Origin: an uncultured Bacteroidota bacterium
GTDB taxonomy: Bacteria > Bacteroidota > Ignavibacteria > Kryptoniales > JAKASW01
Reading direction: 5' to 3'
Length of the DNA stretch: 64,000 nucleotides
Assembly (NCBI GenBank): GCA_963703215.1
Contig: OY969800.1
Location: 3,522,581-3,586,580, forward strand
The notes beneath the pieces were generated by a model. It searched no databases. It was not told the origin of the DNA and saw only the letters and a list, made by a program, of their open reading frames with translations. Positions within the stretch are counted from its first letter, which is position 1; the number at the start of each line of letters is the position of its first letter. This document shows, one piece after another, positions 41,017 to 61,441 of the stretch. Both the position numbers and the translations under genes were made by a program.

Positions 41017-41150
41017 CTCTAACGTTTGGTGGAAAGAGTTGTTGCGCTGGCCCGCCTTGAGAGCTACATAGCGTCGAGTCATCGAGCGAAAGCAATGAAG
41101 CGACCACCTTGAATATACTATGTGGAGCATCCCTCGGCCTCTTGTCATAC
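41017..41150 (-). repeat. attC-like site 1 (degenerate)
   Basis: + strand CTCTAAC...TGAAGCG...GAGCAT...GTCATAC. Confidence 0.75.
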
Positions 41151-42149
41151 GCAGCAGCCGCTGTTCCAGAATATCAAGTGCCAGCGATTTGATTCGTCAT
41201 CTTCCTCTGACCAGCGGGCAACCAAATCAGAGCCCGCCCTGCTTAACGATATTCTATGAGCGAGCGAGTCGAAGTAAGTGGTGGGATAGCAACGAAGAGC
41301 CGTCATCAGATAGATTTGTGCCATTGCACGATCATTGCGGTCACCTCGATGAAGAAGTCTCTCGAAAAGAGCAATTGATTCAGGTCTATTATACTGGACA
41401 AGGGCTTCAATCAGATTACACAATGTCATGTCGCTTAGAGACTTGCCGACGAAAATGCTATCAACGGAAGCTTCCAACAACGGAAAGAAGACTGCTGCAG
41501 GGCACTCCCTCATAGATGTGATAGCATAATATGGATAATAGAGTCTTCCACCAGGAGGTATAGGTCGTTGCCAATGAAACTGCTTCACTTGGGAAGCAAT
41601 GAAGGATTCATCGGAATCCTTGCGAAATCGTGCTAAGGCAACCAGAGCAGCAGGGACTAGCGGATTCTCAGCTAGCTGACGAATGTGTCCGTGTAGTCCT
41701 TCATCTGGAGTAAGATGGAACAGATAATATTCAAGGAATTCGGTGCCAACAAATACACATAGTGGAGCTTCATCTCCCATGTCAAAGTGCATGATACGCG
41801 CTTCCGCAGTATCACGTAAGTGTTCCAACAACGCATTGAAAGCCTCTGGAGTTTGTGAGCGGCTCAAGGCTAGCAGACTGTAATACCTAACAATCGGGCT
41901 CCTATGATTGGCGAGTACCTGTAGCTCAGGTACAGTGGCACTGTCTGCAAGTCGCTCAAATCTCCCGAAAAGCTCCGACTTTTTTTGATGAGGCATCATG
42001 CCGATAAGTGGCCCCTCCGCATGGTCAGAACTCGCAAGCCAATCGGCAAGTGATAATAGGCTTGGCCTAACGGAGGGTGACTTGCTGCAGCCAATGAAGA
42101 CGAGAATCAATATCAATGATAATGAAAAAGGATTGATCCTACTTAACAT
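41145..42149 (-). CDS. Cassette gene: lipoprotein with HEAT-like repeats
   Basis: Lipobox FIGC; stop codon lies in the attC R'' box. Confidence 0.7.
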   Translation of the reverse strand: MLSRINPFSLSLILILVFIGCSKSPSVRPSLLSLADWLASSDHAEGPLIGMMPHQKKSELFGRFERLADSATVPELQVLANHRSPIVRYYSLLALSRSQTPEAFNALLEHLRDTAEARIMHFDMGDEAPLCVFVGTEFLEYYLFHLTPDEGLHGHIRQLAENPLVPAALVALARFRKDSDESFIASQVKQFHWQRPIPPGGRLYYPYYAITSMRECPAAVFFPLLEASVDSIFVGKSLSDMTLCNLIEALVQYNRPESIALFERLLHRGDRNDRAMAQIYLMTALRCYPTTYFDSLAHRISLSRAGSDLVARWSEEDDESNRWHLIFWNSGCCV

Positions 42150-42204
42150 GTAGATACCGACCTCACAGAAGAAATCTATTTAATAATTCCTAAGCGGCTG
42201 TTGC

Positions 42205-42318
42205 GTATAACGTGTGCCGGAATCCCGCCGTGCCGCGTTCCTTCTCTATGTAATAACCGCGGCATGGAGCGAGAACGACATATGAAAATGTCGAGCGTCG
42301 TGATTCGTGCTGTTAGGG
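42205..42318 (-). repeat. attC-like site 2
   Basis: GTATAAC...TGGAGCG...GAGCGT...GTTAGGG. Confidence 0.82.
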
Positions 42319-42362
42319 GCAGGCACGCATTCATGTTAACACTCAAATAATTTGGTCTTGTA

Positions 42363-42779
42363 TTATTTGTCAATTTGGTTTATCTGGTGCCTGCTGGTAC
42401 CATTTCGTGCATTGGTCTTCCCGAAACTGTGTATCAACACTCCGCCTCCGAAACCAATCGCTGCAATGACAAAAGAGAACACGGCGAGTTTCAGAATAGA
42501 AGCGCAGGTATTTGGATGCAAGGTATCAGGCAAACTAAAAATATGCTTGACAACATGTGCAAGCGGTAAGAATAACCATACCAAAATCGCCGCGATCCAG
42601 CCCCGCCCACCCCAGAGAATTCCAGAAGTGACAGTGGTACCAAGCAATAAGATAACAATTACGAATGGGCTAACCTCACCCCCGAATGCAAAATTATCCA
42701 CAGCGGAAACAGCAACTCCAATTGCAAGTCCGACAGCAATTAAAACAGTGCGACTTATCGCAGAAGCGTTTGAACTCAT
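42363..42779 (-). CDS. Cassette gene: 4-TM membrane protein
   Basis: GAGGAGG RBS, hydrophobic helices. Confidence 0.75.
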   Translation of the reverse strand: MSSNASAISRTVLIAVGLAIGVAVSAVDNFAFGGEVSPFVIVILLLGTTVTSGILWGGRGWIAAILVWLFLPLAHVVKHIFSLPDTLHPNTCASILKLAVFSFVIAAIGFGGGVLIHSFGKTNARNGTSRHQINQIDK

Positions 42780-42848
42780 GTCTATTATCCTCCTCTTACT
42801 CTTTCGTGATTATACGCTACTCTTCTATTATGCATAGCACGTGCTTTC

Positions 42849-42965
42849 GCCTAACGTCTGCGCGAATCATGTTCGTGCCGCACTCCTTCTTGACATAATG
42901 TGTGCGGCGTGGAGCGAGAACCATGATATACAATAATCGAGCGTCGTTGATACCCGTTGTTATGC
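42849..42965 (-). repeat. attC-like site 3
   Basis: GCCTAAC...TGGAGCG...GAGCGT...GTTATGC. Confidence 0.85.
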
Positions 42966-42975
42966 GCGGTGGCTT

Positions 42976-43553
42976 TCATTGAGTTCTTTCAAGTTTTACG
43001 TAACCAATATATACTCTCCAATTCACGTTTATGGATTCGTATTTACCGGTCGTGAATTCCACTGCGATAGTATCTCCTGGCTCTGCAGAGATTGAATCCG
43101 CCAATGTTATAAGAGTCCAGCCACTTGAATTGCTAAAATTCATCTTGGGATTGATAAATGAACCTTCTTTCCAAAGCCCCATCACAATAGTGCCCGTGAA
43201 ACCGCTGATGCTATTTTGCCATACAGTGAGTTTGTAGACTCCAACAATAGAGTCTTCCGGGATGTAAGTTATGGCATAAGGGGCCGGTTCGGGAATTCGA
43301 GGGGGTTCCCCGGAAGTAACTCAAGTGAAAATGGTCCATCATTGGGAGGCGCTATCGAGACCACCGATGGATATGGGTCACCACCGACAACCCATCCCGA
43401 TAGGGATGGCTTACCATCCACCTGAAAGTTGGGGTTCCCAATTAAATTCGTAATGTTGGTGCTGGGGACAATTGGGTTGTGAGCGCACGAGTATATTGAC
43501 AGCGATAGCACCAACACTATGGCGACTACAACATACTTATATTTGAGTAACAT
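42976..43553 (-). CDS. Cassette gene: lipoprotein, beta-sandwich-like (frameshift about 43300)
   Basis: IYSC lipobox; NLIGNPNFQ...LSGW; adding one C in the C-run joins ORFs 43269-43553 and 42976-43185. Confidence 0.6.
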
Positions 43554-43581
43554 GATTATCGTCTTTCATAAAAGCCATTGC

Positions 43582-43715
43582 GCATAACGTCCACCAAAAA
43601 GAAGTCGTTGCTTTCGCCCGCTATAAAAGTCGCGTAGCGTCGAGTCATCGGGCGAAAGCAATGAAGCGACCACGATATATACAAATATGGAGCGTCTTCT
43701 TTTTGGTTGTTAGCC
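43582..43715 (-). repeat. attC-like site 4
   Basis: GCATAAC GTCCA CCAAAAAGAAG...CTTCTTTTTGG TT GTTAGCC. Confidence 0.9.
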
Positions 43716-43736
43716 GTTCGTGCACGGCGGCCGGCT

Positions 43737-44153
43737 TTACTCCACTGGCTCACCAGCAAGCTCCAAAGAAAATGCCTTCAGAGAGTCAACCCATTGAAGG
43801 TCGGCAGGGTCGGAACTAGTGCCATCTTTTTTCGAGAGCCAGGTCTCGAATGAAGCTGGTCCCGTTAAGTTAATTCTCCATCCGTCATAGCCTTCGGTCG
43901 ATGCACCCGCCTGCAAACCCTTGGGGTTGTGGAATCCAGTGCTGTCAATTCGATACAGTGTATCGCCATTGTTCACCACGAAAAATTCCGAGTAAAGGCT
44001 ATCCGCAATCTCCACACCATAAAGCGTTCCGACGAGGGAACCATTGCTTGTAGTCAAGTTATGAATGACTTCAAGGTGGGGGGCCCGAGAGGTAGGCGTC
44101 TTAGAGCAAGAAGCGAGGAAGACTAGTGATAAGATGATGGACAATTTAAACAT
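43737..44153 (-). CDS. Cassette gene: hypothetical lipoprotein
   Basis: LASC lipobox, GAGG RBS. Confidence 0.75.
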   Translation of the reverse strand: MFKLSIILSLVFLASCSKTPTSRAPHLEVIHNLTTSNGSLVGTLYGVEIADSLYSEFFVVNNGDTLYRIDSTGFHNPKGLQAGASTEGYDGWRINLTGPASFETWLSKKDGTSSDPADLQWVDSLKAFSLELAGEPVE

Positions 44154-44200
44154 GTCAGTTTACCTCAGCTTTAATATGGATTGTCGCCGCCGTGCATGAC

Positions 44201-44313
44201 GTATAACGTACTGCCGGACAAAGTCGTGGCACGCTCCTTCTTCATATAATTTGCGTGCCATGAAGCGACCACGACATATATAATGTGGAGCGTCTTCTTC
44301 TCGCATGTTATAG
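44201..44313 (-). repeat. attC-like site 5
   Basis: GTATAAC...TGAAGCG...GAGCGT...GTTATAG. Confidence 0.85.
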
Positions 44314-45000
44314 GACGTTGGTTTGCGATTCGTTATGATCCTGCATATTGGGTTGTTCATTTAGTAAAGGCCTCTTTGCAAGCCTAACCACATCATCAAG
44401 CATTCGATAGTAGGACACGAAGATGTAAACTATGGGGACATACGCAGCGACGCTAAGAACATAGAAAAGAACATTGTCGGGAATGTGGAATCCTGTTTTA
44501 GTATCAAAACTCACGGCCAAATTAAATGCAACTCTGAGATGAAACACTTGCGAGCAAATTAGGATTGCGAGAGTTGGGACCACATAGCAGAATCCACTAA
44601 GAATCATTGAGTATCTCCAGCTCTTGGTGGATTTCACCATATGGTAAGATTCAGCCACTTCCATCATTGCCCAACAAAATAGAAACGCGGAGACCAGTGC
44701 ACCATAAAAAGTCAGGTCACTACTGTCTGCACAGAGAGAAATCATGGTATCAACGAGCCCGCTCAAGGACAATATCGATCGGAACACAATCATTGTCCAA
44801 ATGAAAATGACGGACCAAAGAAGTGATTTACTCTTTCTTGTCTCGGGGCAATCGTAGAGAAAGGCTACACTGCATAATAGAAGTGCCCCTCCAAAATCAG
44901 ATGACTTATATTCGACGTCGCCCACGCTGAAGCGGAAAAAGCACAAGATGATCCCGACAGCTAAAAACCTTCGCGACCAGAGAAGAGCGCCCTTATCCAT
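44308..45000 (-). CDS. Cassette gene: multi-pass membrane protein
   Basis: About six hydrophobic segments; stop TAA lies in the R'' box. Confidence 0.7.
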   Translation of the reverse strand: MDKGALLWSRRFLAVGIILCFFRFSVGDVEYKSSDFGGALLLCSVAFLYDCPETRKSKSLLWSVIFIWTMIVFRSILSLSGLVDTMISLCADSSDLTFYGALVSAFLFCWAMMEVAESYHMVKSTKSWRYSMILSGFCYVVPTLAILICSQVFHLRVAFNLAVSFDTKTGFHIPDNVLFYVLSVAAYVPIVYIFVSYYRMLDDVVRLAKRPLLNEQPNMQDHNESQTNVL

Positions 45001-45096
45001 TGATTGATGACGTCAGCTTTGGACTAGAAATAGCAGAATATGACATTCCTAATATTCCTCCATTTAAATTGTATTGGAGAAAGCAAACCAATGTTC

Positions 45097-45230
45097 CTAT
45101 AACGTGACCCGCAAAGAAGTCGTGCTCTTGCCCGCTATGAAAAATCGCGGAGCGTCCAGATGGCGGGCAAGAGCATGAAGCGAGTTCTATCATATACAAT
45201 AACCGAGCGTCTTTTTTGCGGTTGTTAGGC
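45097..45230 (-). repeat. attC-like site 6
   Basis: CTATAAC GTGAC CCGCAAAGAAG...CTTTTTTGCGG TT GTTAGGC. Confidence 0.9.
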
Positions 45231-45252
45231 GACGTGCCATCTTGTTAGTTAG

Positions 45253-45807
45253 CTAAGACTTCAAGTTCTGGAATGTCACATTGGTACAGAAATAGTTATA
45301 TTCTTTTTCACGGAACCATACTGTTTCTAATTTTTTGGAATCCTTGACCTCCTTTTGGATAAGCCATTTTGCAAATGAAGGAAGCTGTTTCCTCTTGTAC
45401 CGAGCGGCGGCAACAATGAAATCTAGATTTTCGTTGTGTATGAAGAAGCGATTAGGAATGCACTCCAAATCGCTTGCAATTATGCCATACCGCAGCCAAG
45501 GATAGATTGCTTTGTGTTTGCCAGCTTTTGCAGAATAGGTAATGACATCATGGGTTGTAAGCTTGGTTTTAAACTCGATTACGACCCTTGGGAGGAAGCG
45601 GGAAGCAGATAATTCCAAGATGCAAATGTCAGTTTGGAAAGCTGAGATGCCTCTTTTGGGATTCTTCGTGTCGCTAACTGAAACATCTAATGACGTGTTC
45701 AGCGTCAATTCGTAGAGAAGGTTATGTCCGCGCTCCACCTTCAGAGAATCAGCGAGAGCATTGCTCGCTGATTTTTCAAACAGAGTCACAAAGGCAGATT
45801 CTTTCAT
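45253..45807 (-). CDS. Cassette gene: PD-(D/E)xK nuclease-fold protein
   Basis: FQTDICI...PRVVIEFKTK...HDVITYSAKA. Confidence 0.65.
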   Translation of the reverse strand: MKESAFVTLFEKSASNALADSLKVERGHNLLYELTLNTSLDVSVSDTKNPKRGISAFQTDICILELSASRFLPRVVIEFKTKLTTHDVITYSAKAGKHKAIYPWLRYGIIASDLECIPNRFFIHNENLDFIVAAARYKRKQLPSFAKWLIQKEVKDSKKLETVWFREKEYNYFCTNVTFQNLKS

Positions 45808-45821
45808 ATTTGGACTGACAG

Positions 45822-46595
45822 CTAGTTACCGTTGATGGAGTTACCAACAATCTCGATGGCTTCAACGTCGGCGTTGAAAGCATTCTTTGAAATTGCTGTG
45901 CCAATAAAATAACCAGCACACGTGATTATTGATTGTGGCTCAAGACGAGAAGAACTGCCATTGTACAGGAATTCAACCGTAGAAACACCCGCTAGGGAGT
46001 TTGAGCTTTCTACTGCAATCATAACGTCGGTCCAATTGCCGAGCGAAGGCGACACACTCTGAACAGTATAAACGTCGCCAGTGGCGCGGACGAGTTGACC
46101 AATGTAGGCGTATGGATTTTTCGATATTTCGGATACTGGCACCCTCCTAGCATTGTGCCATGTTGACGATGGGGTTGAATCCTGAATTTTACGCATAGCC
46201 ACGGCGAGATTGCCATTTGATTGAATTGAGGCATCAGAAGTATTGAATGATTCTTGGCGTTGGTAGGACTGCGAGGTATAACTATTGTTGTTCGTTTGAA
46301 AAAGAGAAGACAAATTTATGACTCCATATTTGTTGAGGAGATATATCACGACAGCAATGACAAGTAGAGCTTCTCCCACTTCCTTGAATCTGAAAGACGA
46401 TGATTGTTGCGGTGACTTTGGTAAGTTGTCCTCATCAGTAACGTGTTCACGCTTAGCGGAGCTGTTGGTCTCATCGGATTCTACAGATGGCGAAGGTTGA
46501 GGTACAAGGTCTGTGCGACTCTGAAGGGCAGCCCCACAGTTTATGCAGAACTTGAAGTCGTCTGAATTAAATTTGCCGCATGATGTACAGTACAT
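45822..46595 (-). CDS. Cassette gene: zinc-ribbon, single-TM protein with OB-fold-like ectodomain
   Basis: MYCTSCG...FCINCG, TM helix, NPYAYIGQLVRATG.V. Confidence 0.75.
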   Translation of the reverse strand: MYCTSCGKFNSDDFKFCINCGAALQSRTDLVPQPSPSVESDETNSSAKREHVTDEDNLPKSPQQSSSFRFKEVGEALLVIAVVIYLLNKYGVINLSSLFQTNNNSYTSQSYQRQESFNTSDASIQSNGNLAVAMRKIQDSTPSSTWHNARRVPVSEISKNPYAYIGQLVRATGDVYTVQSVSPSLGNWTDVMIAVESSNSLAGVSTVEFLYNGSSSRLEPQSIITCAGYFIGTAISKNAFNADVEAIEIVGNSINGN

Positions 46596-46623
46596 TCATC
46601 CTCCTATTTCTTGATGGCATGAC

Positions 46624-46740
46624 GCCTAACGTCTGCCAGAAAGAAGTCGCGCCGCGCATCCATGTTATTCCTATGAGCGCGGCGTGAAGCGAACTCGATA
46701 TTATATCTCATGATGAGCGTCTTCTTTCTGGCTGTTAGGC
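46624..46740 (-). repeat. attC-like site 7
   Basis: GCCTAAC GTCTG CCAGAAAGAAG...CTTCTTTCTGG CT GTTAGGC. Confidence 0.9.
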
Positions 46741-47259
46741 GCAGCGTGGCCAGTACTTAAGCACCACTGCCCACATCACAAGAACGATGAAGGTGAGCAA
46801 GAATCTCATCTTGCGAACCGCACCCTTGCCGGTGAGCAGTCGAACGAGAAAGTTCCTGTCAGGCCTCTTCTCAGGCAACGGATCGGTAATCACTACCAAT
46901 TTCTCAATCTCAAGGAGCCACTCGAGCGATTTATCTTGAAATGCTCGATGATTTTCGGCAATCACCAACCAAATGATCATTATCGCCGATGATACGAGTG
47001 CAAGAGTCAGGAGATGAACAAACTGTGGTTCCTTCAAAGCAGTTAGAGCAGCGAAACCAGCAAGGGAAAGCGGTATCATGATTTGAGCAGTTGACCAGAT
47101 GCGATTGTTGTCAGAGAGAAATCGTTGAGAATAACTGGAGTAAAAAGCCTTCAACCAGTCATCAGCGATGGCAGGATTGTTCTTGCGGAAATCCGTAAGT
47201 TGATCACGAAGAGACCGCCTTGGTTGCTGAGTGACAGGTTGGGGATTATTTAAGTTCAT
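46735..47259 (-). CDS. Cassette gene: 3-TM membrane protein
   Basis: GAGGAGG RBS; TM hairpin, W...LLEIEK helix, C-terminal TM; stop in R'' box. Confidence 0.75.
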   Translation of the reverse strand: MNLNNPQPVTQQPRRSLRDQLTDFRKNNPAIADDWLKAFYSSYSQRFLSDNNRIWSTAQIMIPLSLAGFAALTALKEPQFVHLLTLALVSSAIMIIWLVIAENHRAFQDKSLEWLLEIEKLVVITDPLPEKRPDRNFLVRLLTGKGAVRKMRFLLTFIVLVMWAVVLKYWPRCA

Positions 47260-47301
47260 TGTTGCCTCCTCTTTCTATGGGAGATTCGATTGCCACGTTG
47301 C

Positions 47302-47439
47302 GCCTAACGTCCTGCCGCAAACAAGTCGTCCCGATTGTCGCATATAAATATTTGCGAAGCATCCATGATACGCGGCAATCGGGATGAAGCGAGCTCCATC
47401 ATATAAAATAACCGAGCGTCTTTTTTGCGGTTGTTAGTT
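47302..47439 (-). repeat. attC-like site 8
   Basis: GCCTAAC...CCGCAAACAAG...CTTTTTTGCGG TT GTTAGTT. Confidence 0.9.
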
Positions 47440-47455
47440 GCAGTTGCCCGCCGTT

Positions 47456-48733
47456 TCATTTGAGCAATAAAAGTTTCTTGGTGTCATGGTACGTGCCAGC
47501 GTCAAGCCTGTAGAAGTATATTCCACTGGGAAGGCTGCCTGCGTTAAACGTAATGGAATGATTGCCTGCACTCTGGCGTTCGTTAACCAGAGTTTCAACT
47601 CTTCTCCCCAATACATCGAATACCATTAACGACACAAAAACGTTCGTTGTCAATTGGTAACCTATGATGGTTGATGGGTTAAATGGGTTAGGGAAATTCT
47701 GAAGCAAGGCAAATCTCTTCGGCACTCTATTGTCCGCTTGTTTTACAGACGTAGTCATTTCAGACAAAGTCCTTTTCCACACTCCATGTCCCCAGGTACC
47801 TGCAAATAGAAACGAGTCCTTAATGGCGAGAGAGTAGACCGCTGAATCTAAGGATCCTGTATTGACGGCGCTCCAGGTCGTGTCATGGTCAGTGGACAGA
47901 AAGACTCCTCCCCAAGTGCCTGCAAAGAGTCTGTCGCCGCTAGTCACAAGAGACATGACGTTCCCTCCAGCGAACGTGAGACCAGAACTACTGTTGAACC
48001 AATTTGTGCCGTTGTTTGTCGTGAAGAAAACGCCACCGCCATCGGTACCAGCAAATAGAGTGCCTCCTATAAAGGTCAGCGCTTGAACAACTGTTGTTCC
48101 TAAGCCAATCCAGTGAACAGATTCAATCAGTCCATTACTTACAGCAGTCCAACTTGTTCCATTATTGATCGAAAGAAAGACTCCTTTATCCGTCCCTGCA
48201 AAAAGCTCTGTATCTCTGATGGCAAGACACTCGACATACGCATCTTCCATGCCAGTATTTGCAGCTGTCCAGCTATCGCCGTTGTTGGTGGAAAGAAAAA
48301 CCCCTTGACCATAGATACCCGCAAAGATATTGGTTCCACTGAAAGCAAAAGTTGTGAGGTCGTAGTTTGTCAAGCCGCTGTCTATTGATGTCCAACTGGA
48401 ACCGTTATCGGTGGAACGAAAGACTCCTCCATCTGCATGCGCAAAAAGAACCGTGTCTTTGATGGCCAAAACGTTGGCAACATTGCCAGACGGACTTATG
48501 CGGATAGTGTCCCAACTATTGCCGTTGTCGCTGGACAAAAATGTTCCCCCTCCGATATAGTAGTGATCTACAGTAGTTGGCCCATCACCGACAACGAGAT
48601 TCTTACCGAGCACGGCAATGCAATAGATGTGACCGTCGGAAAGTCCGTTGGTTTGTATCCATTGTGCATTTAAAGAACTTATAGCGCTGAAGAAGGTAAT
48701 CACCAACGCTAAAACCCGAAATAGATTCTTCAT
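47456..48733 (-). CDS. Cassette gene: BNR/Asp-box beta-propeller with T9SS type A C-terminal sorting domain
   Basis: Start MKNLF after AGGAG; repeats GVF.S.DNG.SW; LLQNFPNPFNPST...SGIYFYRL...TKKLLLLK. Confidence 0.9.
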   Translation of the reverse strand: MKNLFRVLALVITFFSAISSLNAQWIQTNGLSDGHIYCIAVLGKNLVVGDGPTTVDHYYIGGGTFLSSDNGNSWDTIRISPSGNVANVLAIKDTVLFAHADGGVFRSTDNGSSWTSIDSGLTNYDLTTFAFSGTNIFAGIYGQGVFLSTNNGDSWTAANTGMEDAYVECLAIRDTELFAGTDKGVFLSINNGTSWTAVSNGLIESVHWIGLGTTVVQALTFIGGTLFAGTDGGGVFFTTNNGTNWFNSSSGLTFAGGNVMSLVTSGDRLFAGTWGGVFLSTDHDTTWSAVNTGSLDSAVYSLAIKDSFLFAGTWGHGVWKRTLSEMTTSVKQADNRVPKRFALLQNFPNPFNPSTIIGYQLTTNVFVSLMVFDVLGRRVETLVNERQSAGNHSITFNAGSLPSGIYFYRLDAGTYHDTKKLLLLK

Positions 48734-48770
48734 CAGGTTCTCCTTTCGTGTAGCAGTAAAGGGCAATTGC

Positions 48771-48904
48771 AACTAACGTCCACCGCAAAAAAGTTGTCCC
48801 GCTTGCCGCTAAAAATATTGCATGGCATCCACGATGCGGCGAAGCGGGATGAAGCGAGTTCTATCATATACAATAATCGAGCGTCTTTTTTGCGGTTGTT
48901 AGGC
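48771..48904 (-). repeat. attC-like site 9
   Basis: AACTAAC GTCCA CCGCAAAAAAG...CTTTTTTGCGG TT GTTAGGC. Confidence 0.9.
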
Positions 48905-48941
48905 GAAGTTGTTTTGTAACCGTAATTCACGTCTACAATGT

Positions 48942-49385: not shown

Positions 49386-49422
49386 GACATTTGATCCTTA
49401 AAAGACATTGCAAAACAATTTC

Positions 49423-52112: not shown

Positions 52113-52126
52113 TTTACTTCTCCTTA

Positions 52127-53092: not shown

Positions 53093-53148
53093 TTGACCTC
53101 CATTTTAACTCCTAAGTTCTCCAACGTTTGCTCGGCGAGCGCCATTGC

Positions 53149-53282
53149 AGATAACGTCCTGCGGCAAAAAGTCGTTGCTTTCGCTCGCTATAAAAGTTGC
53201 GAAGCATCGAGTCATCGAGCGAAAGCAATGAAGCGACCACGATGTATAAAAATGCGGAGCGTCTTTTTGCCGCTTGTTATGC
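53149..53282 (-). repeat. attC-like site 12
   Basis: AGATAAC GTCCT GCGGCAAAAAG...CTTTTTGCCGC TT GTTATGC. Confidence 0.9.
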
Positions 53283-53358
53283 GCAGGCAAAGTTTCTTGT
53301 CATTTGCTTTTTTGGCCCGACATATCGAATTTGAATGCGATACTTGCAAGGTTAGCAA

Positions 53359-53829
53359 CTACCAGCTGTCCTGCTTGTTTTCTTTTACGAATGAATATAG
53401 GTCTGTTATTAAGTTCGAGAGATTGGCTTTCACTTGATTCAGTTCTCCTTCCGTTTCCATCGGTCCGCGAGAGCCGTTATCATATAAACGCACAATTTGA
53501 TCGCAAGTGACTCTAAGCTTCCCGTCTTTGGTTTCGATGGTGATAAGATATTCAGCAGGAATTTTCACCCATGCGCGAGTGAACTCACTAACACCTCTTC
53601 CGATAATTTTGCCATTTTCAGGATCTCGCAATTGGATAACATCTTTTGATGACACGTACGTCTTCGACATCCATTCGTTGGCTTTATCATATATTTGCTT
53701 TTGGCTTAAACCAGGGAGATCAAAGATTTTTTGTACTTGGCGTTGTTCTTGTGGAAGATTCTCTGTGGTAGCACAGGAAGCAAGAAGAACGCATAAAGTT
53801 ATTAACGAAGAGATTTTGTAAAGTCTCAT
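53359..53829 (-). CDS. Cassette gene: DUF4468-like lipoprotein
   Basis: Start MRLYK after AGGAG; LASC; IY.KA.EW...Y.S.K.VIQ..D.E.G.IIG.G, I..KDGK.R. Confidence 0.75.
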   Translation of the reverse strand: MRLYKISSLITLCVLLASCATTENLPQEQRQVQKIFDLPGLSQKQIYDKANEWMSKTYVSSKDVIQLRDPENGKIIGRGVSEFTRAWVKIPAEYLITIETKDGKLRVTCDQIVRLYDNGSRGPMETEGELNQVKANLSNLITDLYSFVKENKQDSW

Positions 53830-53878
53830 ACTTATTCTCCTTTTTTGATTTGTGAAATAATATTGATTCAACTAATAC

Positions 53879-54508
53879 TTATTCCTTCTTAATAAGTTTA
53901 GCAATTTCTTCCAGGTGTTTTGATATTTCGTTCAGTTGAGTCTCAGTGCTTTTGGTTAATACCATATCTTCGAAGATGACAGAATTCATATCGATGGTAT
54001 ATGAATGTCGATATATTTCGTTATTTGAATCAGCGTATGAGTAACTAACAGTGAAAACTCTGTTTTCAGGATTAACCCTGTTGGCGTGAAGAGTTGTGCT
54101 GACCAAATTCTTGACTTCATAATTAGGAGGAAGGAAAGATTGGTTCAAAAGCGGATCGGCCATTCCCTTAAAGCGTCCATCCTTACTCAATTCTTCGAGA
54201 GATGGCGAAATATTTATTTCCACATTATACGCTGGGCGACTACCGACATTTTTAACCGAAAACCAAATAGCACTTGAATCAACTGGTAAACTGACAACTA
54301 CATAGGGCCTTGATTGCTCCTGCATGGTTTTTTGAGATGAGCGAAGAATGAAGAATGTCAGGATAACATATGCAGCGGTCAATATTGCCAGTAACGGATT
54401 AGAAACGCTGGATATAATTTTGATGACGGCAGAATCTGGGAAGACAAATAAGAGGATTACTCCTAATGCAAAGAGTACGAAAACAAAATATGGTGCCTTA
54501 TTTTTCAT
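53879..54508 (-). CDS. Cassette gene: N-terminally membrane-anchored hypothetical protein
   Basis: Two N-terminal TMs, QSRPYVVV, KNVGSRPAYNV. Confidence 0.7.
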   Translation of the reverse strand: MKNKAPYFVFVLFALGVILLFVFPDSAVIKIISSVSNPLLAILTAAYVILTFFILRSSQKTMQEQSRPYVVVSLPVDSSAIWFSVKNVGSRPAYNVEINISPSLEELSKDGRFKGMADPLLNQSFLPPNYEVKNLVSTTLHANRVNPENRVFTVSYSYADSNNEIYRHSYTIDMNSVIFEDMVLTKSTETQLNEISKHLEEIAKLIKKE

Positions 54509-54613
54509 TGCTAAGTCAGGGACTTAATTTTCCTTTTTTGGACAGAAAACTCTTATCGGCAAAAATCATTGCTTCTTCAAATAAACATATTGCCATATCA
54601 GAACTTTGCTTGC

Positions 54614-54729
54614 GCATAACGTTTGCGAGAAAAGAGTCGCGGCGCACTCCTGGCAGCCTATAATGTGTGCGCCGTGAAGCGAGCACCATCATATATAATA
54701 ATCGAGCGTCTCTTTTCTCGTTGTTATCT
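54614..54729 (-). repeat. attC-like site 13
   Basis: GCATAAC GTTTG CGAGAAAAGAG...CTCTTTTCTCG TT GTTATCT. Confidence 0.9.
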
Positions 54730-54771
54730 GTTCGTTGGCTTGCGTGAAGCGTTGGTAGCCTGGTAAGCATA

Positions 54772-55278
54772 TCAGCCATTCACCAGAAATGCTAGATTTA
54801 AATTTACATTTACTTTCTTGTTGTTCTCGTGCACCGTCGCATGAACTCTATACACCCCCAGCGGGTCATTGTGCTCAAGGGCAATGTCGATCTTAGACCA
54901 CGAAAGTTCCATCACAGGCGCGGGCTCGTCCTTCCAGATCGTGAGCCCATCAAAGTGAGCATACATAGACCCATCGGGTTTGGTCACGGTCAGATCGCAT
55001 GTTAAGTTAGCGTTGCCCTTGTCATCCTTACCGTCCGTGGCAAAAATTATAATCGGGAGCGCAGTCTGCCCGCGTTTGAATGTGTCTTGAGTACTGATGT
55101 GGGGAGTCTCGGGCAATGCCCACTTCTGATAAAAGGTCGTGTCGTCAGTCAGCAAGAAAATCACAGAAAAGCCATCCTTATTGTATTCGTCCTTCTGAAT
55201 CAAGGAATCAGGAGGCGCGGCAAACACTTTTCCAAAGCCGCAGACAAACATTAAGAAAAATAGAGAAGCTTTGTTCAT
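54772..55278 (-). CDS. Cassette gene: secreted hypothetical protein
   Basis: Signal peptide ending VFA; Ig-like C-terminus (DPLGVYRV). Confidence 0.75.
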   Translation of the reverse strand: MNKASLFFLMFVCGFGKVFAAPPDSLIQKDEYNKDGFSVIFLLTDDTTFYQKWALPETPHISTQDTFKRGQTALPIIIFATDGKDDKGNANLTCDLTVTKPDGSMYAHFDGLTIWKDEPAPVMELSWSKIDIALEHNDPLGVYRVHATVHENNKKVNVNLNLAFLVNG

Positions 55279-55353
55279 CCTTCAACCTTTCTTTATCGAT
55301 AATATTTCATGGTAGCATACTCATGTCATCAGAGCGGCTCGCAAGCCAATGAC

Positions 55354-55488
55354 AGATAACGTCCTGCAAGAAAAAGTCGTTGCTCTCGCCCGCCACAAAT
55401 GTTGCGAAGCATCCAGACAACGGGCGAGAGCAATGAAGCGACCACCTTGCATATATAATGTGGAGCATCTTTTTCTTGCTTGTTAAGC
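55354..55488 (-). repeat. attC-like site 14
   Basis: AGATAAC GTCCT GCAAGAAAAAG...CTTTTTCTTGC TT GTTAAGC. Confidence 0.9.
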
Positions 55489-55545
55489 GCAGTTGTTTTG
55501 CATCTTAAAGTTGACCACTTCTGCGAACGAGGACTTGCTCGCCTT

Positions 55546-56160
55546 TTAGAACCACCGCTTCCTTTTTTTGTAAACCACATCGTCGCCCTTACCATGGTCG
55601 TCCTTCAAGTCTTTTCCAACACTGTAAAGCAAAAACGAATCAGGTGCAACAGGTCTATAAATTATTGTGAGTTCTGGTATTCCCACTCCTACATATGTAT
55701 GGACTGGAGAGTGTTGGTCAAAATCGTTCATAGTGAAATCACCAACAGAATTAGAATCTCCAATCTTCATGGGTTTCACCCACCCAACATCACCACGATT
55801 CTTCACAAATAGAGTGTCCCTCGTCCTGTTAATCGAATCAGCGTAAATGTAAACGTCTTCGATGTGAACGTATTTCCTGATAGAATCAATAAAATATTTT
55901 CCACTAATTTGAGGGTAGTGGCCATAATCGGAGTGGTATTTATGTAACCCTGTCGCTGTTGAATCTAGAAGTTCGGAGATGATTTTCGCATCCAGTTCAT
56001 TATACAAATCGGGACCATGAATGAAACTCAGTTGCATTTGCCTGAGTTGCCAATATGCAAATGAAATGAGCAAACCGACAATAGTAATGCCAAGAACAAT
56101 TTGCAACCACCGTTTCTGTTTGATAACGCGTGGAATGAATCGCTCAGGGATTGGAATCAT
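55546..56160 (-). CDS. Putative immunity protein 1: single TM + GspG-pseudopilin-like domain
   Basis: Overlaps the toxin stop by 17 nt; YHSDYGHYP and FLLYSVGKD..DD.GKGDDV motifs. Confidence 0.6.
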   Translation of the reverse strand: MIPIPERFIPRVIKQKRWLQIVLGITIVGLLISFAYWQLRQMQLSFIHGPDLYNELDAKIISELLDSTATGLHKYHSDYGHYPQISGKYFIDSIRKYVHIEDVYIYADSINRTRDTLFVKNRGDVGWVKPMKIGDSNSVGDFTMNDFDQHSPVHTYVGVGIPELTIIYRPVAPDSFLLYSVGKDLKDDHGKGDDVVYKKRKRWF

Positions 56161-56899
56161 TTCCTGACTCTGGTATTAGTGGTACAGTATTTATTGGGAC
56201 ACCCACAGGATTTATAATCCCTTCATTCATTAGCAATCCAACCGCTTGGTAAATAATCTCGCCAGCTATTGAGGAACCACTCAACGAAATTGTCCTCTCT
56301 GAATTTGTGACGTAGCCAGAATTTTGAAGAGCATTAGAGAGCTGCTCTGGTGACACCGCTCCATTTGGTTGATTGAAAGGAATTCCGCCAGCCTTCAACG
56401 CGTTCATTGTGGTTGTTACGCATGAATTAGTTTCCGCGTTATAAGTGCCATCCTGTCGGCTATCGAGAACTTTCTGAACTTTTGTTTCGTCAACATTAAC
56501 CGTTTGCTCTATGACAGACCGAACCTGCTTTTCATTTGCAACATACTTATCATATGAAACCAAGTGCCATTTCCCGTCACCCTCAAAGGAATACACTTTC
56601 CCATCTCTCCTGATAGCCGTATGGCCAGCAAGACTGTTAGCAGTAGGACTACCATTAGTTGTGTTCTGAATCGTAGGGCCAGAAGTAATCACCGATGTGG
56701 TATCACCGTTAGGGTCAATAAACCTTATCGGATTATCCATCCCATAGTTGTATGGCGACAATCCTGGATACTTTCGTTGCATCGGGTCAGGTGTCGTCCA
56801 CCTCGCGCACCATGAATCAAAATATCTGTGCGCGTAGGTCGGTTGAACAAATGTGAATGCCAAAAGAAGGAGTGGGAAAAAGTTTCTAATCTTTTTCAT
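56144..56899 (-). CDS. Signal-peptide mini-RHS toxin 1 with permuted papain-like C-terminal domain
   Basis: Sec signal, then RYFDSWCARWTTPDP...SPYNYGMDNPIRFIDPNG (RHS core), then GHTAI...YNAETNSC. Confidence 0.8.
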   Translation of the reverse strand: MKKIRNFFPLLLLAFTFVQPTYAHRYFDSWCARWTTPDPMQRKYPGLSPYNYGMDNPIRFIDPNGDTTSVITSGPTIQNTTNGSPTANSLAGHTAIRRDGKVYSFEGDGKWHLVSYDKYVANEKQVRSVIEQTVNVDETKVQKVLDSRQDGTYNAETNSCVTTTMNALKAGGIPFNQPNGAVSPEQLSNALQNSGYVTNSERTISLSGSSIAGEIIYQAVGLLMNEGIINPVGVPINTVPLIPESGNDSNP

Positions 56900-56919
56900 G
56901 AGAATGCCCTTTCTGCGAT

Positions 56920-58236
56920 TTAGTATTGTCCAGTTAGTTTAAACTTCTCGATTGATTCTGCCTGCTTGATGAAAAACTTCTCAGGGAACTTCAGCACGAT
57001 TCCTAATTGCTTGGCTTTCGTCTTCAATTTATGGCCAAGGTCTATGAGTTCCAATATCTGCTTCCCGTAGCTGTCATTTATGTATGCAATCTCTCCCATC
57101 ATCTCAGCCTCATCATTCTGACGCTGAACGTTTGGATTTTGGTTTACTGGAAACTGGTTGTAAGGATTATTTGGCTTCTCAAACGGATTCGGAGCTTGAG
57201 GACTCATATTTCTTGTAAATTGATCGAACATCGTGGTTATTGGTTGACGAGGTTGTGTTGGGTCGGAGGTCCCTTGTTGAATAAACTGGTCGGGGTGTAT
57301 TATTTGCATTGGCTCTGGAGTAGGATTCACTTCCATTTGTGATGATGGTTGTCGCGTTGGATACGTGTCGACAATGTAGCTTCGCCTTACGTCCTGAATC
57401 CTTTCGTACCTTGTGCTGTCAAGCTCTATCGCCTTTCTTCTGCAAAGCTCACCAAGGTTCCACCATGCGCTTGAGTTGGTAGAATCGTAGGAAAGCGAAA
57501 GCCGTGTGTAGTAAATAGCTTTATCCAAATCCTTTCTCTTTTCTAAAAAGTATCTTGCGTTCACTCCGAGAAGCGAGGCGACGTATTCTTTATTTGTGAG
57601 AACTCTTTCATAAACTCCATTCTTGATGGCTCTCTTTGGTTCACCAGCATCGGTGGCGTACCTCCATGTGGGAATATATCCACCGCCACATGTTGCCTCA
57701 ACGTTGTTTAGCTTGAATCCTTTCTGCATGTAACGGCAGTAGAAATGCTTTGCGCTTCTAACAGGCTTAATGGGCCAACCGAGTCGTTGCGCCAAGACAA
57801 GATGGAGCATCGACATCGTGACACATGAGCCGAGTTTCGTTGCGATGTAGCCGTTTAAGAATTGGTCACTGGTACTATCACCTTCAAGGTCATTGAGGTT
57901 ATAAGTGAAGGTAATTGAATCGTTCCACCGCCCAGGCCTGTAAAGATAGGTATTCATCAAGCCAATGCGGAAAACTGGGTCGGCTTTGCCTTGGTCAAGG
58001 TAACGAATCTGGTCAGCCATGTAGTTAATGACGTAATCAAAGGACTCGACTTTTAGATTTGGATATGCATCTTTTGCAAGAGCGAGGCAAGCAATCCCAA
58101 GGTTTATGCTGTCATCGGGCATAGCGAGGATCTGTTCAATCGTCTGCCCTGTGTACTTCGATTGTGGTTTCGTCGTGTCAGGAATCAAGAAACAGAGAAT
58201 AACCACTGCCGATAATAAGATTTCAAGTCGCTTCAT
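56920..58236 (-). CDS. Secreted SirB1/transglutaminase-like protein with TPR and Pro/Gln-rich region, copy 1
   Basis: FLNGYIATKLGSCVTMSMLHLVLAQRLGWPI...AKHFYCRY...NVEAT; TPR (KAIYY...AWWNLG). Confidence 0.75.
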   Translation of the reverse strand: MKRLEILLSAVVILCFLIPDTTKPQSKYTGQTIEQILAMPDDSINLGIACLALAKDAYPNLKVESFDYVINYMADQIRYLDQGKADPVFRIGLMNTYLYRPGRWNDSITFTYNLNDLEGDSTSDQFLNGYIATKLGSCVTMSMLHLVLAQRLGWPIKPVRSAKHFYCRYMQKGFKLNNVEATCGGGYIPTWRYATDAGEPKRAIKNGVYERVLTNKEYVASLLGVNARYFLEKRKDLDKAIYYTRLSLSYDSTNSSAWWNLGELCRRKAIELDSTRYERIQDVRRSYIVDTYPTRQPSSQMEVNPTPEPMQIIHPDQFIQQGTSDPTQPRQPITTMFDQFTRNMSPQAPNPFEKPNNPYNQFPVNQNPNVQRQNDEAEMMGEIAYINDSYGKQILELIDLGHKLKTKAKQLGIVLKFPEKFFIKQAESIEKFKLTGQY

Positions 58237-58245
58237 GCTCGCCTC

Positions 58246-58274
58246 ACTTTACTGATGATTTCATGTTTACGCAA
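58246..58274 (-). promoter_or_regulatory. Candidate cassette-internal promoter
   Basis: Minus strand TTGCGT-N17-TAAAGT, conserved in the next cassette. Confidence 0.4.
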
Positions 58275-58308
58275 TACCCCGTTTGAGGTATTTTCGCAAA
58301 ACAATTGC

Positions 58309-58445
58309 GCTTAACGTCCACCGCAAAAAAGTCGTCCCGATTGCCGCACATAAATATTTGCGCAGCATCCATGATACGCGGCAATCGGGATGAAGCGAAT
58401 TCAATATATGTTCCATAATGAGCGTCTTTTTTGCGGTTGTTAGCT
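58309..58445 (-). repeat. attC-like site 15
   Basis: GCTTAAC GTCCA CCGCAAAAAAG...CTTTTTTGCGG TT GTTAGCT. Confidence 0.9.
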
Positions 58446-58511
58446 GCTGTTGGTTTGCGCTTCGTTAGCCTCCTGATATGCCATGGTCAATCACCTTACT
58501 CTATAATTGGC

Positions 58512-59129
58512 CTATTCTTTCAAAAATCTTTCTTTTTCCGTCTGAAAAAATTTAACCTCTCGAAACCTCCCTGTGATGCTGGTCTCGTAAAGTACCTCAG
58601 AATGTTTTAGAGACTCATTTATCGGACTGATATTATTAATTGCGCAATCCATTTGTTCAATAGCTTTGGATAAGCTTCCAAACTTCTTGTAGGCACCAGC
58701 TAATACATATCTATTAAGAACCCAATCTGGAGATGAAAAAACAGATTGTTCGAGCAAATCAATCTGTTCCATGAGATTTATTTTCTCTAAATCATCAAGG
58801 GTTTCGGCTAGTAACATAAAAACTGCGCCTTTTTGTTTGGAAACATTATTCAATATCATGGATCGCAACAATTTCTCAGCTTGCAGAAGTGAACTTTTAT
58901 CCATTGAATAATGAATGTGACAGAAACAGAGCCAAAGTTTGGCAATTTCATATTCTGGATTCAACGCAAGGATTCTATTCAATAGAGCAATTGCTTTATC
59001 TTCTTTATGAAATGGCTCGATGTAGAAACTTGATAACTCAAGCATATTACTGACATCACCTTTGTCTGTCGAGGTTTTACGCTCAAGGGCTACCAGTTTT
59101 TCTATGTCTTCTTTTGTTTCGTGTCCCAT
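58512..59129 (-). CDS. Putative immunity protein 2 (TPR-like, cytoplasmic)
   Basis: Immediately downstream of toxin 2; AT-rich; helical TPR-like repeats; no signal peptide. Confidence 0.6.
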   Translation of the reverse strand: MGHETKEDIEKLVALERKTSTDKGDVSNMLELSSFYIEPFHKEDKAIALLNRILALNPEYEIAKLWLCFCHIHYSMDKSSLLQAEKLLRSMILNNVSKQKGAVFMLLAETLDDLEKINLMEQIDLLEQSVFSSPDWVLNRYVLAGAYKKFGSLSKAIEQMDCAINNISPINESLKHSEVLYETSITGRFREVKFFQTEKERFLKE

Positions 59130-59142
59130 GATTTAAAGGTTA

Positions 59143-59893
59143 TTATTGGTTTGGTACGAAAACAGTTCCCAGCTTTACGGTTCGGTCACTGTCAATAAAA
59201 CCTCGTATGGCGACAGTTGTTCCATCAATGTCTTTTGTTACTGCAAAAGTCCCAGGTGAAGGATTGTCCTCTTGGACAGACTCTTATCACGGACTCTAAG
59301 AAATTTTCGTTTCCGCCGAGCCTTTCTATCAGGGGTTGAAGCATATGTTCGTCCTGCAGTATGTGGGCAAGCTTAGCCTCCTTCATAGCATATTCAAGTG
59401 ATTTTGCTAAAACTTCTTCCTCACCAGCTGGCCCGCCAGGGATATTTACGATTCCCATCGTGAGAGTCGGTCTCGGTGCGAACCATCTCGCTCCGTTTGC
59501 GGTCGGTACGATTTCACGGTTAGGCTGCATATGGTGGAAATGCCCCATGAACGGATCAATCACGGTGTATTGAGCAAGAGTTAAAATTGTGAAATTTCCA
59601 GAAACATAATTAGAGTTTTGCTGTCCCCAAACAATCATATCTGGCGAGTTATCAATAGGAACTAAATTGTGGTTTTGGTCGTAAGCATATGTCGTATCTC
59701 CGCTTGGGTCGATATTTCTTAATGGGTTACAGAGTCCGTAGTTGTACGGAGACCATGCTGGGTACAGCATTAGATATGGGTCAGGGGTGCACCATTGCGC
59801 ACGCCATGAATCAAAATATCTATGAGCGTAGCTCGGTTGAACAAACGTAAATGCCAAAAGAAGAAGTGAGAAAAAGTAAGTAGTCTTTTTCAT
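59143..59893 (-). CDS. Signal-peptide mini-RHS toxin 2 (apparent +1 frameshift about 59281)
   Basis: Sec signal + RHS core ...NPLRNIDPSG; repaired C-terminus KLAHILQDEHMLQPL...SVQEDNPSPGTFAVTKDIDGTTVAIRGFIDSDRTVKLGTVFVPNQ*. Confidence 0.75.
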
Positions 59894-61177
59894 CGGAATG
59901 CCCTTTCAGTTAGTCAGTATTGTCCTGTTCGTTTGAACTTCTCAATTGATGCTGCTTGCTTGATGAAAAACTCTTTGGGAAACTTCAGCACGATTCCAAG
60001 TTCCTTAGCTTTTGCTTTTAATTTATGTCCAAGGTCTATGAGTTCCAATATTTGCTTTCCGTAGCTGTCGTTTATGTACGCAATCTCTCCCATCATCTCT
60101 GCTTCATCATTCTGCCTTTGAATGTTTGGATTCTGATTAATAGGGAACTGATTGTATGGATTGTTTGGCTTCTCAAGCAGTGATGGAGGTTGCGGAGCTA
60201 TGTTCCTCGTGAACTGGTCGAACATGTCTGTTACTGGAATTCTTGGTTGCGTCGGATCAGGAGGCACCTGTTGGATGAATTGGTCTGGATGTATTATCTG
60301 TGTTGGCTGAGGATTCGGATTCACCTGAACTTGTGGTGATGGCTGTCGCATAAGATAATCGTCAGTTGCGTAGTTCCGCTTCACGTCTTGTATTCTCTCA
60401 TATCTGATACTATCAAGCTCTATCGCTTTCTTCCTACAAAGCTCGCCGAGGTTCCACCACGCACTTGAGTTGGTGGAGTCGTAGGAGAGGGAAAGCCGTG
60501 TGTAGTAAATGGCTCTGTCCAATTCTTTCTTTTTCTCTGCGAAGTACCTTGCATTCACTTCGAGAAGCCCTGCAATGTATTCTTTGTTCGTGAGAACTCT
60601 CTCATAAACTCCATTCTTGATAGCCTTCTTCGGCTCTCCTGCATCGCGCGCGTAACGCCATGTCGGTATCCATCCCCCACCGCAGGTCGCTTCGATATTA
60701 TCGTACTTGAGACCTTTCTTGATGTAACGACAATAGAAATGCTTAGCACTTCTGACAGGTCTGATGGGCCAGCCGAGCCTCTGCACCAAGGCAAGGTGGA
60801 GCATCGACATCGTAATACAAGAACCATGCTTCGTTGCGATATATCCGTTCAGAAATTGGTCGTTGGTGCTGTCGGCGTCGAGGTCATCAAGATTATAAGT
60901 GAATGTGATGGCATCGTTCCACCATCCAGGCCGATATAGGTAGGTATTCATCATGCTAATCCGAACCGTGGGGTCGGTTTTCCCTTCGCAAAGCGGTCGA
61001 ATGTGGTCAGCCATATAGTTGAGACTGTAATCGAAGAAATTTATGTTGAGATTCGGATACGCATCCTTTGCAAGAACGAGACAAGCTATTCCAATATTGA
61101 TGCTGTCCTCTGGCATGGCAAGAATTTGCTCAATGGTTTGTCCTGTGTATTTCGATTGTGGCACGGACTCGTTGGGA
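59429..61177. repeat. Long direct repeat, copy A (pairs with 62252-64000, offset 2823)
   Basis: High identity over the SirB1-like gene and the toxin N-terminal half; ends abruptly at the IPGGP codons. Confidence 0.9.
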
Positions 61178-61230
61178 TTAAAGAAGGACACCACTACAAG
61201 AACCGAAAGCAGGGTATTTAAATGTTTCAT
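59914..61230 (-). CDS. Secreted SirB1/transglutaminase-like protein, copy 2
   Basis: 438 aa; GSCITMS, AKHFY, NIEAT conserved. Confidence 0.75.
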   Translation of the reverse strand: MKHLNTLLSVLVVVSFFNPNESVPQSKYTGQTIEQILAMPEDSINIGIACLVLAKDAYPNLNINFFDYSLNYMADHIRPLCEGKTDPTVRISMMNTYLYRPGWWNDAITFTYNLDDLDADSTNDQFLNGYIATKHGSCITMSMLHLALVQRLGWPIRPVRSAKHFYCRYIKKGLKYDNIEATCGGGWIPTWRYARDAGEPKKAIKNGVYERVLTNKEYIAGLLEVNARYFAEKKKELDRAIYYTRLSLSYDSTNSSAWWNLGELCRKKAIELDSIRYERIQDVKRNYATDDYLMRQPSPQVQVNPNPQPTQIIHPDQFIQQVPPDPTQPRIPVTDMFDQFTRNIAPQPPSLLEKPNNPYNQFPINQNPNIQRQNDEAEMMGEIAYINDSYGKQILELIDLGHKLKAKAKELGIVLKFPKEFFIKQAASIEKFKRTGQY

Positions 61231-61239
61231 GCTCGCCTC

Positions 61240-61268
61240 ACTTTACTGATGATTTCACGTTGACGCAA
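61240..61268 (-). promoter_or_regulatory. Candidate cassette-internal promoter
   Basis: Minus strand TTGCGT-N17-TAAAGT. Confidence 0.4.
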
Positions 61269-61304
61269 TACCTCAATTGGGGTATTTTCGCGCAAACTAA
61301 TTGC

Positions 61305-61441
61305 AGATAACGTCCACCGCAAAAAAGTCGTCACGATTGCCGCATATAAATATTTATGTAGCATCCATGGCACGCAGCAATCGGGATGAAGCGAGTTCCA
61401 TCATATAGAATAACTGAGCGTCTTTTTTGCGGTTGTTAGCT
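61305..61441 (-). repeat. attC-like site 16
   Basis: AGATAAC GTCCA CCGCAAAAAAG...CTTTTTTGCGG TT GTTAGCT. Confidence 0.9.

Follow-up and report, generated by a model that had tools for sequence, protein, structure and literature searches.

Two described kinds of recombination site, the attC sites of class 1 integrons and the Vibrio cholerae repeats (VCRs) of Vibrio, stand closest to the attC array discussed here, which lies in a stretch of 64,000 nucleotides (the window) of contig OY969800.1 from an uncultured bacterium of the Ignavibacteria. All share the RYYYAAC/GTTRRRY boxes, the G|TT crossover and a bottom-strand hairpin as the substrate, and in all of them a cassette begins with bases complementary to its own R''. 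According to the accessible text of Bouvier 2009 (PMC2727003), which credits the statement to Rowe-Magnus 2003 and Sundstrom 1991, most cassettes self-pair past the 7-nt boxes, giving a total of 9–11 consecutive complementary nucleotides; the likeness to Vibrio rests on this statement, and the contrasts measured below exclude Vibrio arrays. In the class 1 cassettes measured here the pairing ends without continuation, whereas the sites of this genome add 5–14 bp after a fixed G·T wobble. The outer stem and the wobble together are a real, lineage-specific variant of attC architecture.

The array occupies positions 41017–61441 of the window on the + strand. A profile search (nhmmer) with the window's own sites as the model recovers 16 attC-like sites at 41019–61458, and 15 complete cassettes lie between them. 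All sizeable open reading frames (ORFs) between the sites are on the − strand, co-oriented and with an attC downstream, so the + strand is the bottom one, the substrate of integron integrases, and the cassettes have the − strand as their top strand; the loss of identity between cassette copies at TAA|C (below) agrees with this. For each cassette, a 30-nt stretch from the G of its own GTTA onwards was compared with the reverse-complemented 30 nt that run up to and include the C of the following TAAC. The ends align from the first base over 16–23 columns in 15/15 cassettes, with identities between 13/16 (cassette 2, the weakest match) and 20/22; the claim of an earlier note on this DNA, that every cassette has its own inverted repeat reaching beyond the 7-bp R box, thus holds. 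When all ends are scored against each other in a 16 × 16 matrix, the cognate partner is top in 15/15 rows, with cognate scores of 8.5–17.5 and best non-cognate scores of 6.0–13.5. Chance end pairing was considered and rejected.

Column 11 of the alignment is G in the left end and A in the right end (reverse complement) without an indel in 12/15 cassettes (1, 2, 3, 6–12, 14 and 15); the other three (4, 5 and 13) have a 1-nt indel, and the G/A immediately precedes the outer match. These are exactly the counts given before, and the four arm pairs quoted as examples (cassettes 8, 9, 11 and 14) are correct to the letter. The pair is G·T on the + (bottom) strand and C·A on the coding strand, as had been stated. 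It had also been noticed that the repeat shapes the ends of three genes, and three ORFs (41145–42149, 44308–45000 and 46735–47259) do pass through the arm and stop within R''.

The brackets all lie on the + strand. Column 11 is G/A in cassette 1 (41144–42211; arms 41144–41162 and 42193–42211; 17/19), cassette 2 (42312–42855; arms 42312–42327 and 42840–42855; 13/16), cassette 6 (45224–46630; arms 45224–45241 and 46613–46630; 16/18), cassette 7 (46734–47308; arms 46734–46750 and 47292–47308; 16/17), cassette 8 (47433–48777; arms 47433–47449 and 48761–48777; 16/17), cassette 9 (48898–49429; arms 48898–48919 and 49408–49429; 20/22), cassette 12 (53276–54620; arms 53276–53294 and 54602–54620; 18/19), cassette 14 (55482–58315; arms 55482–55501 and 58296–58315; 19/20) and cassette 15 (58439–61311; arms 58439–58460 and 61290–61311; 18/22). 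The difference reads GG/AA over columns 10–11 in cassette 3 (42959–43588; arms 42959–42979 and 43568–43588; 18/21) and TG/AA in cassette 10 (49531–50386; arms 49531–49549 and 50368–50386; 17/19) and cassette 11 (50508–53155; arms 50508–50529 and 53134–53155; 20/22). The 1-nt indel takes the form TCG versus CA in cassette 4 (43709–44207; arms 43709–43731 and 44186–44207; 19/23) and cassette 13 (54723–55360; arms 54723–54744 and 55340–55360; 20/22), and CG versus ACA in cassette 5 (44307–45103; arms 44307–44326 and 45083–45103; 19/21).

On sequence comparison, the extended pairing is a property of the attC family and not of the window's array alone. The whole genome, a single 3.6-Mb contig, has 63 attC sites in about seven clusters by profile search, and 49/50 adjacent attC pairs score at least 8, the single failure having a degenerate neighbour. 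A covariance model (R1) finds the family in 24/25 other species of the genus and in 7/22 other genomes of the class that were searched, and in 0/12 genomes of a sister family's genus. Arrays from 13 related genomes were pooled with those of the window's genome, giving 164 adjacent pairs (154 unique). Under a strict rule for the outer pattern (G/A at column 9–15, then at least 4 matches) 123/154 unique pairs pass, compared with 43/1529 shuffled partners; the 31 failures include many alignment variants of the pattern (e.g. CCG versus CA), and about a dozen that look like non-adjacent sites.

Column counts were taken from the 103 of the 154 pairs that align without gaps over at least 15 nt, a selection that favours good matches. 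Columns 1–4 and 8 are fixed. Columns 5–7, 9 and 10 are variable, yet the arms agree in 86–101/103, and column 11 is G in 102/103 on one arm and A in 103/103 on the other. Beyond it, in columns 12–17, all four bases are used and the arms are identical in 86–103/103, versus 27–49 for shuffled partners; columns 12–16 are 97–100% paired across these 103 cassettes from 14 genomes. The first consecutive complementary run is 9 or 10 nt in 100/142 parsed pairs, and pairing resumes past the wobble. The outer sequence is specific to the cassette, with 97 distinct 6-mers among 142. A count of 'compensatory' differences between arm pairs that resemble each other (347 versus 113) did not require homologous cassettes and so restates the covariation. 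Near-empty 'cassettes', in which the attC sites are 74–151 nt apart (L023, L024 and L012), retain the matching arms and the G/A position.

Complementarity was also measured in other integrons. Nine class 1 cassettes on three plasmids pair over 7–12 nt with nothing past that (by eye). The corresponding values are 6–11 nt for 15 cassettes of a Verrucomicrobiae array (L071), 10–12 nt for 11 cassettes of a betaproteobacterial array (L092), 5–11 nt for five cassettes of a Thermoanaerobaculia array and, by eye, 7–8 nt for four cassettes of a second Thermoanaerobaculia array and 8–10 nt for four of a Calditrichia array (L036). A uniform scan was then applied to all sets, requiring a perfect 9-nt end match and hairpins at both ends and recording the longest run that followed no more than three irregular columns. 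Of the 111 cassettes of the focal type 85 have an outer run of 5 or longer, as do 0/15 class 1 candidates and 3/183 candidates at 52 other IntI loci, a set that includes some false cassettes and whose validated arrays show no outer run; no run of at least 6 occurs among the class 1 candidates or the 183 candidates at those 52 loci. Extension as far as that seen here is thus not routine in the other integrons examined. Model R1 detects no attC of the focal type beside 80 IntI loci of other taxa (one weak hit), and these loci are therefore usable as contrasts only. The repeats of L049 were considered as attC sites and rejected, being G+C-rich tandem repeats. On the window an energy-only attC finder (AAC...GTT, closing pairs forced) produced many false sites, and its output was kept only with the 9-nt end match.

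The arrays L071, L092, L090, L042 and L036 resemble the focal array in that homogeneous attC sites lie beside an IntI that is 54–57% identical to that of this genome and the cassette starts complement their own R'', but none shows the outer helix. Compared with class 1 attC sites and VCRs, the focal sites are long (113–138 nt), have a conserved branch on the 3' arm and revealed no clear extrahelical G and T in the folds. The attI1 site carries accessory integrase-binding repeats, DR1 and DR2, which are conserved direct repeats in duplex attI. Like these, the outer helix is an extra element outside the core boxes, but one without a conserved sequence. The attC features known to act in strand selection (extrahelical bases, unpaired central spacer and variable terminal structure) are likewise asymmetric, making the bottom strand unlike the top, as far as the accessible parts of Bouvier 2009 and Nivina 2016 describe them; they lie inside the site, from the R box to the loop, whereas the focal wobble is outside R and is a type of base pair, not an unpaired base.

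The earlier note did not know the extended repeat as a defined attC feature. For the inner 9–11 nt this did not stand, as they are already in print in the accessible text of Bouvier 2009; only the wobble and the helix beyond position 11 appear undescribed. What is accessible of Nivina 2016, Nivina 2020, Vorobevskaia 2024 and a 2022 review covers the R box, L box, spacer, extrahelical bases and terminal structure and has no outer helix. The literature searched (supplements excluded) held no paper combining attC, integron, wobble and bottom strand, and the sole paper found linking attC and Ignavibacteria, that on IntegronFinder 2.0, lists integrons in that group in its accessible part and goes no further; a term search of Larouche and Roy 2011 gave no match.

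The units are true integron cassettes. Cassette copies in different arrays of the genome have 0 internal mismatches over 774 and 708 nt, and they lose their identity from −5 and +3 relative to TAA|C; the crossover is placed with a resolution of about 7 nt. A joint in a metagenome contig skips exactly 1465 nt, the whole of cassette 12, its placement being ambiguous by seven letters within the conserved box. This skipping form (window 53150–54616) is present in three runs of two studies, although one of the three may be the source of the assembly and the evidence is not fully independent. Other metagenome contigs join attC 13 to attC 15. These data suggest that cassette content varies in natural populations. 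A joint that goes back 2342 in one contig of one run was left out of account, as were depth and holes in the contig lay-out. In L009 one cassette occurs twice (12479–12993 and 15403–15901), 100% identical over 499 nt with a 16-nt difference at the 5' end, where the shorter copy starts from another GTTAG within the longer copy, as though recombination had used a secondary site.

Folded as the bottom strand of the circular form, the site has the outer helix as its outermost part, with a first unbroken run of 4–14 bp (median 8) after the wobble. Position 11 is T·G (it would be C·A on the top strand), and position 10 is paired, a T·T mismatch or a bulged T. Inward of this is the R-box duplex of 9–10 bp, ending in TAA|C; it is followed by a short asymmetric unpaired stretch, a helix of ∼12 bp and then an inner helix and loop. 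In the folds 3–5 nt are unpaired after TAAC on the 5' arm and 0–2 on the 3' arm, and no canonical extrahelical G and T bases were recognised in the folds of the window sites. TAAC and GTTA are paired in 110–112 of 113 aligned sites. The 30 model pairs of the internal helices are 96.1% paired, versus 31–53% in slid controls, and 759 cells are changed on both sides compared with 217 in shuffles (0/500 shuffles reach 759), although the alignment was fitted to the model, which favours pairing. Every attC in the window also has a conserved segment of 35–40 nt on the 3' arm (e.g. 58390–58430) with the motifs GAAGCGA ... GAGCGTC; this forms a side branch in the consensus fold, which is unusual for attC sites.

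The wobble at position 11 is one of three fixed wobbles, all of which would be C·A on the top strand. The other two are near-invariant bottom-strand G·T pairs inside the attC (108/112 and 107/113; columns 8/258 and 30/154 of alignment A3): in the first, the G that follows each TAAC pairs with the T preceding each GTTA; in the second, a G in AAGTCG pairs with the T of ATGAAGCGA.

Folding energies were calculated with DNA parameters for isolated strands at 37 °C, which may not be the growth temperature of the organism. In the window the bottom strand of the circular form has a mean energy of −42.1 kcal/mol, compared with −30.1 kcal/mol for the hybrid sites of the array, and is lower in 15/15; the 44 unique sites taken genome-wide give −42.7 and −32.0 kcal/mol, respectively, with the circular form lower in 43/44. 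The proposal that only the excised circle builds the long outer stem therefore holds in silico. Of the two strands the bottom one folds more stably in 13/15 window sites and 36/44 genome sites, by 2.5–2.9 kcal/mol, and has 3.7 G·T pairs per fold versus 1.2 for the top. With the outer arms present, the seven R-box pairs form with a mean probability of 0.90; the figure is 0.81 for the top strand and 0.28 for array hybrids.

The safest reading, judged from the sequences, is that the R arm of this attC family exceeds the published length, is interrupted by a wobble specific to one strand and is maintained by covariation. It consists of three parts: a 9–10-bp R-box duplex, in which GTTA and G8 are fixed and positions 5–7 and 9–10 are free but paired; a near-invariant G·T at position 11, roughly one turn of the helix away from the point of cleavage, beside which position 10 may be a mismatch or a 1-nt bulge; and a further helix of 5–14 bp with a cassette-specific sequence. 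The family occurs in one genus of Ignavibacteria-like bacteria and some neighbouring families. With the crossover at AA|C on the bottom strand, one arm of the R duplex is carried at the far (5') end of the cassette. Because of this crossover position the arm can form only from a cassette's own two ends, which meet only in the cassette circle or when both ends pair in single-stranded DNA; the array sites, as hybrids, are unable to build the outer helix.

The explanation that we favour for the whole, with moderate confidence, is that the bracket is the outer part of the cassette's own attC hairpin, stabilising and marking the free cassette. We infer that the module would stabilise and mark the bottom-strand hairpin. 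This would make the excised circle a much better folded substrate than the array hybrids and may bias the system towards capture and retention, which the earlier note had put as re-integration favoured over excision; the fixed wobbles would add a bottom-strand bias because the top strand turns them into C·A mismatches.

Several results weigh against this explanation, besides the folding temperature and the preference for good matches in the column counts. The R-box pair probability is already 0.88 with only 10 cognate nucleotides, so the outer helix adds nothing to it (0.90). A simple role as a clamp for the R box is thus not supported by these probabilities. The contrast between circle and array comes mostly from the cassette-specific R-box positions 5–10, as it would in any integron with varied R boxes. 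Mismatches in the outer helix (columns 12–17) comprise six transitions of the bottom type and eight of the top type, with no strand bias; without a G·T bias among them, the helix could, apart from column 11, form on either strand. Finally, the only full IntI is ∼69 kb from the array and has no attC beside it. Cassette activity today is therefore not implied by the position of the gene, while the population variants suggest turnover.

A bolder form of the favoured explanation makes the outer helix and the wobble a third, lineage-specific attC module that would exist in the excised cassette only and act as a cognate lock. Free circles would fold into a complete substrate marked on the bottom strand, all array sites would be crippled hybrids, capture would be ready and release rare, and the cassette-specific arms may keep the footprint of the event that first joined an attC to each gene. 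We offer this tentatively, as a possibility that falls short of being probable.

The matching arms could instead be a scar of cassette genesis, in which an attC core was joined to a gene via, or creating, a short inverted repeat (for example by insertion into an existing palindrome or by fold-back synthesis); the repeat would persist without present function, and the helix would survive because the cassettes are young or are copied as units. The uniqueness of the outer sequence in each cassette (97 distinct 6-mers among 142) would be expected of such an origin, as would the arm running into the last codons of three ORFs, and the outer helix brings no modelled gain in R-box pairing. Against this, columns 12–16 are 97–100% paired in the 103 cassettes of 14 genomes; in one cassette with two copies that differ by 7% over 2651 nt the stem is unchanged. 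Copying should moreover give a perfect repeat, so the invariant G·T at a fixed position is hard to explain, and if the repeat derived from a terminator a T-run would be predicted after the arm, which is not seen. Orthologous cassettes with differing arms gave only 4/14 informative pairs, too few to separate selection from templated origin. Taken together, we consider a genesis scar unlikely.

Direct recognition is the other reading with some weight: G8 and the G·T at position 11 would be read on an 11-bp R arm by the integrase or a host protein, and the outer helix would only supply duplex for a protein clamp, so that its role would be in binding or register and not in stability. The fixed positions 1–4, 8 and 11 among others that are free but paired fit this, as do the distance between position 11 and the cleavage site, which is about one helical turn, and the 9–11-nt self-pairing published for other cassettes, which in the accessible text stops at about the same place. 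The IntI is, in addition, closely related to the solved IntI4 (2a3v, E = 1e-87). Cassettes of the IntI1 type nevertheless manage on 7–12 bp without a wobble, and we regard direct recognition as quite unlikely.

An RNA panhandle, with pairing of the 5' and 3' ends of the cassette transcript controlling translation or stability, would suit arms placed in the 5' leader and just past, or across, the stop codon, but it is very improbable and was rejected: the sense transcript would have A·C at position 11, the wobble existing only on the antisense (bottom) strand, and the arms are 0.5–3 kb apart within a long co-oriented array. Least credible of all are terminal inverted repeats of transposase-moved units that are not parts of attC, which would account for a 16–23-nt inverted repeat around each unit and were rejected because the repeats differ beyond GTTA and would be unreadable for a sequence-specific transposase, target duplications are not seen, the boundaries coincide with the attC crossover and no transposase gene was recognised among the 23 scanned ORFs of the array region.

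The integrase gene lies outside the window at contig positions 3493885–3494820, and its product, a true integron integrase, scores 434.3 bits with TIGR02249 (cut-off 265). It is 49% identical to IntI1, and its nearest relatives in public genomes are from Ignavibacteria metagenome-assembled genomes (61–69% identity). A 303-aa IntI-like recombinase is encoded among the attC sites at the far end of the contig (positions 4189–4998); at 216.9 bits it is below the cut-off, and it matches in two stretches, skipping model positions 180–241.

The left TAAC of the R boxes is present in 16/16 window sites and the right GTTA in 15/16, one being GTCA. From R' to R'', with the C of the left TAAC and the G of the right GTTA given in that order, the sites on the + strand found by the profile are attC 1 at 41017–41150 (41023, 41144; 88.1 bits), attC 2 at 42205–42318 (42211, 42312), attC 3 at 42849–42965 (42855, 42959), attC 4 at 43582–43715 (43588, 43709), attC 5 at 44201–44313 (44207, 44307), attC 6 at 45097–45230 (45103, 45224), attC 7 at 46624–46740 (46630, 46734), attC 8 at 47302–47439 (47308, 47433), attC 9 at 48771–48904 (48777, 48898), attC 10 at 49423–49537 (49429, 49531), attC 11 at 50380–50514 (50386, 50508), attC 12 at 53149–53282 (53155, 53276), attC 13 at 54614–54729 (54620, 54723), attC 14 at 55354–55488 (55360, 55482), attC 15 at 58309–58445 (58315, 58439) and attC 16 at 61305–61441 (61311, 61435). 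The array extends past the right end of the window, up to the end of the contig. The degenerate R'' of attC 1 (GTCATAC, 41144–41150) belongs to the last site of the array, and the TGA on its opposite strand is the stop codon of a 334-aa HEAT-repeat ORF.

Three paralogous multi-gene cassettes of 2.8–3.0 kb occupy 55360–58314, 58315–61310 and 61311–64000 of the window. Each encodes a transglutaminase-like protein of 438 aa and a secreted protein that combines an RHS-associated core motif with a divergent C-terminus, and also contains a small ORF; the three RHS-motif proteins score 41.2, 32.8 and 32.4 bits with TIGR03696 (cut-off 32.5). From their predicted products these cassettes look like polymorphic toxin and immunity modules. 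The sole Rfam match in the window is a tRNA gene at 8701–8787.

If the favoured explanation is true, attC sites would have a feature outside the R box, a conserved helix in which one type of base pair is fixed for one strand, that current attC models and integron finders leave unscored; the accessible literature names five features, the R box, L box, spacer, extrahelical bases and terminal loop. The bracket offers an exact, assembly-free way of delimiting cassettes in this bacterial group, and the cassette-specific arms are among the scarce sequence clues that might help with the unsolved problem of cassette genesis. The outer stem and its wobble would also give a testable reason for a difference in substrate between an excised cassette and an array site, which bears on the stability of large chromosomal arrays.

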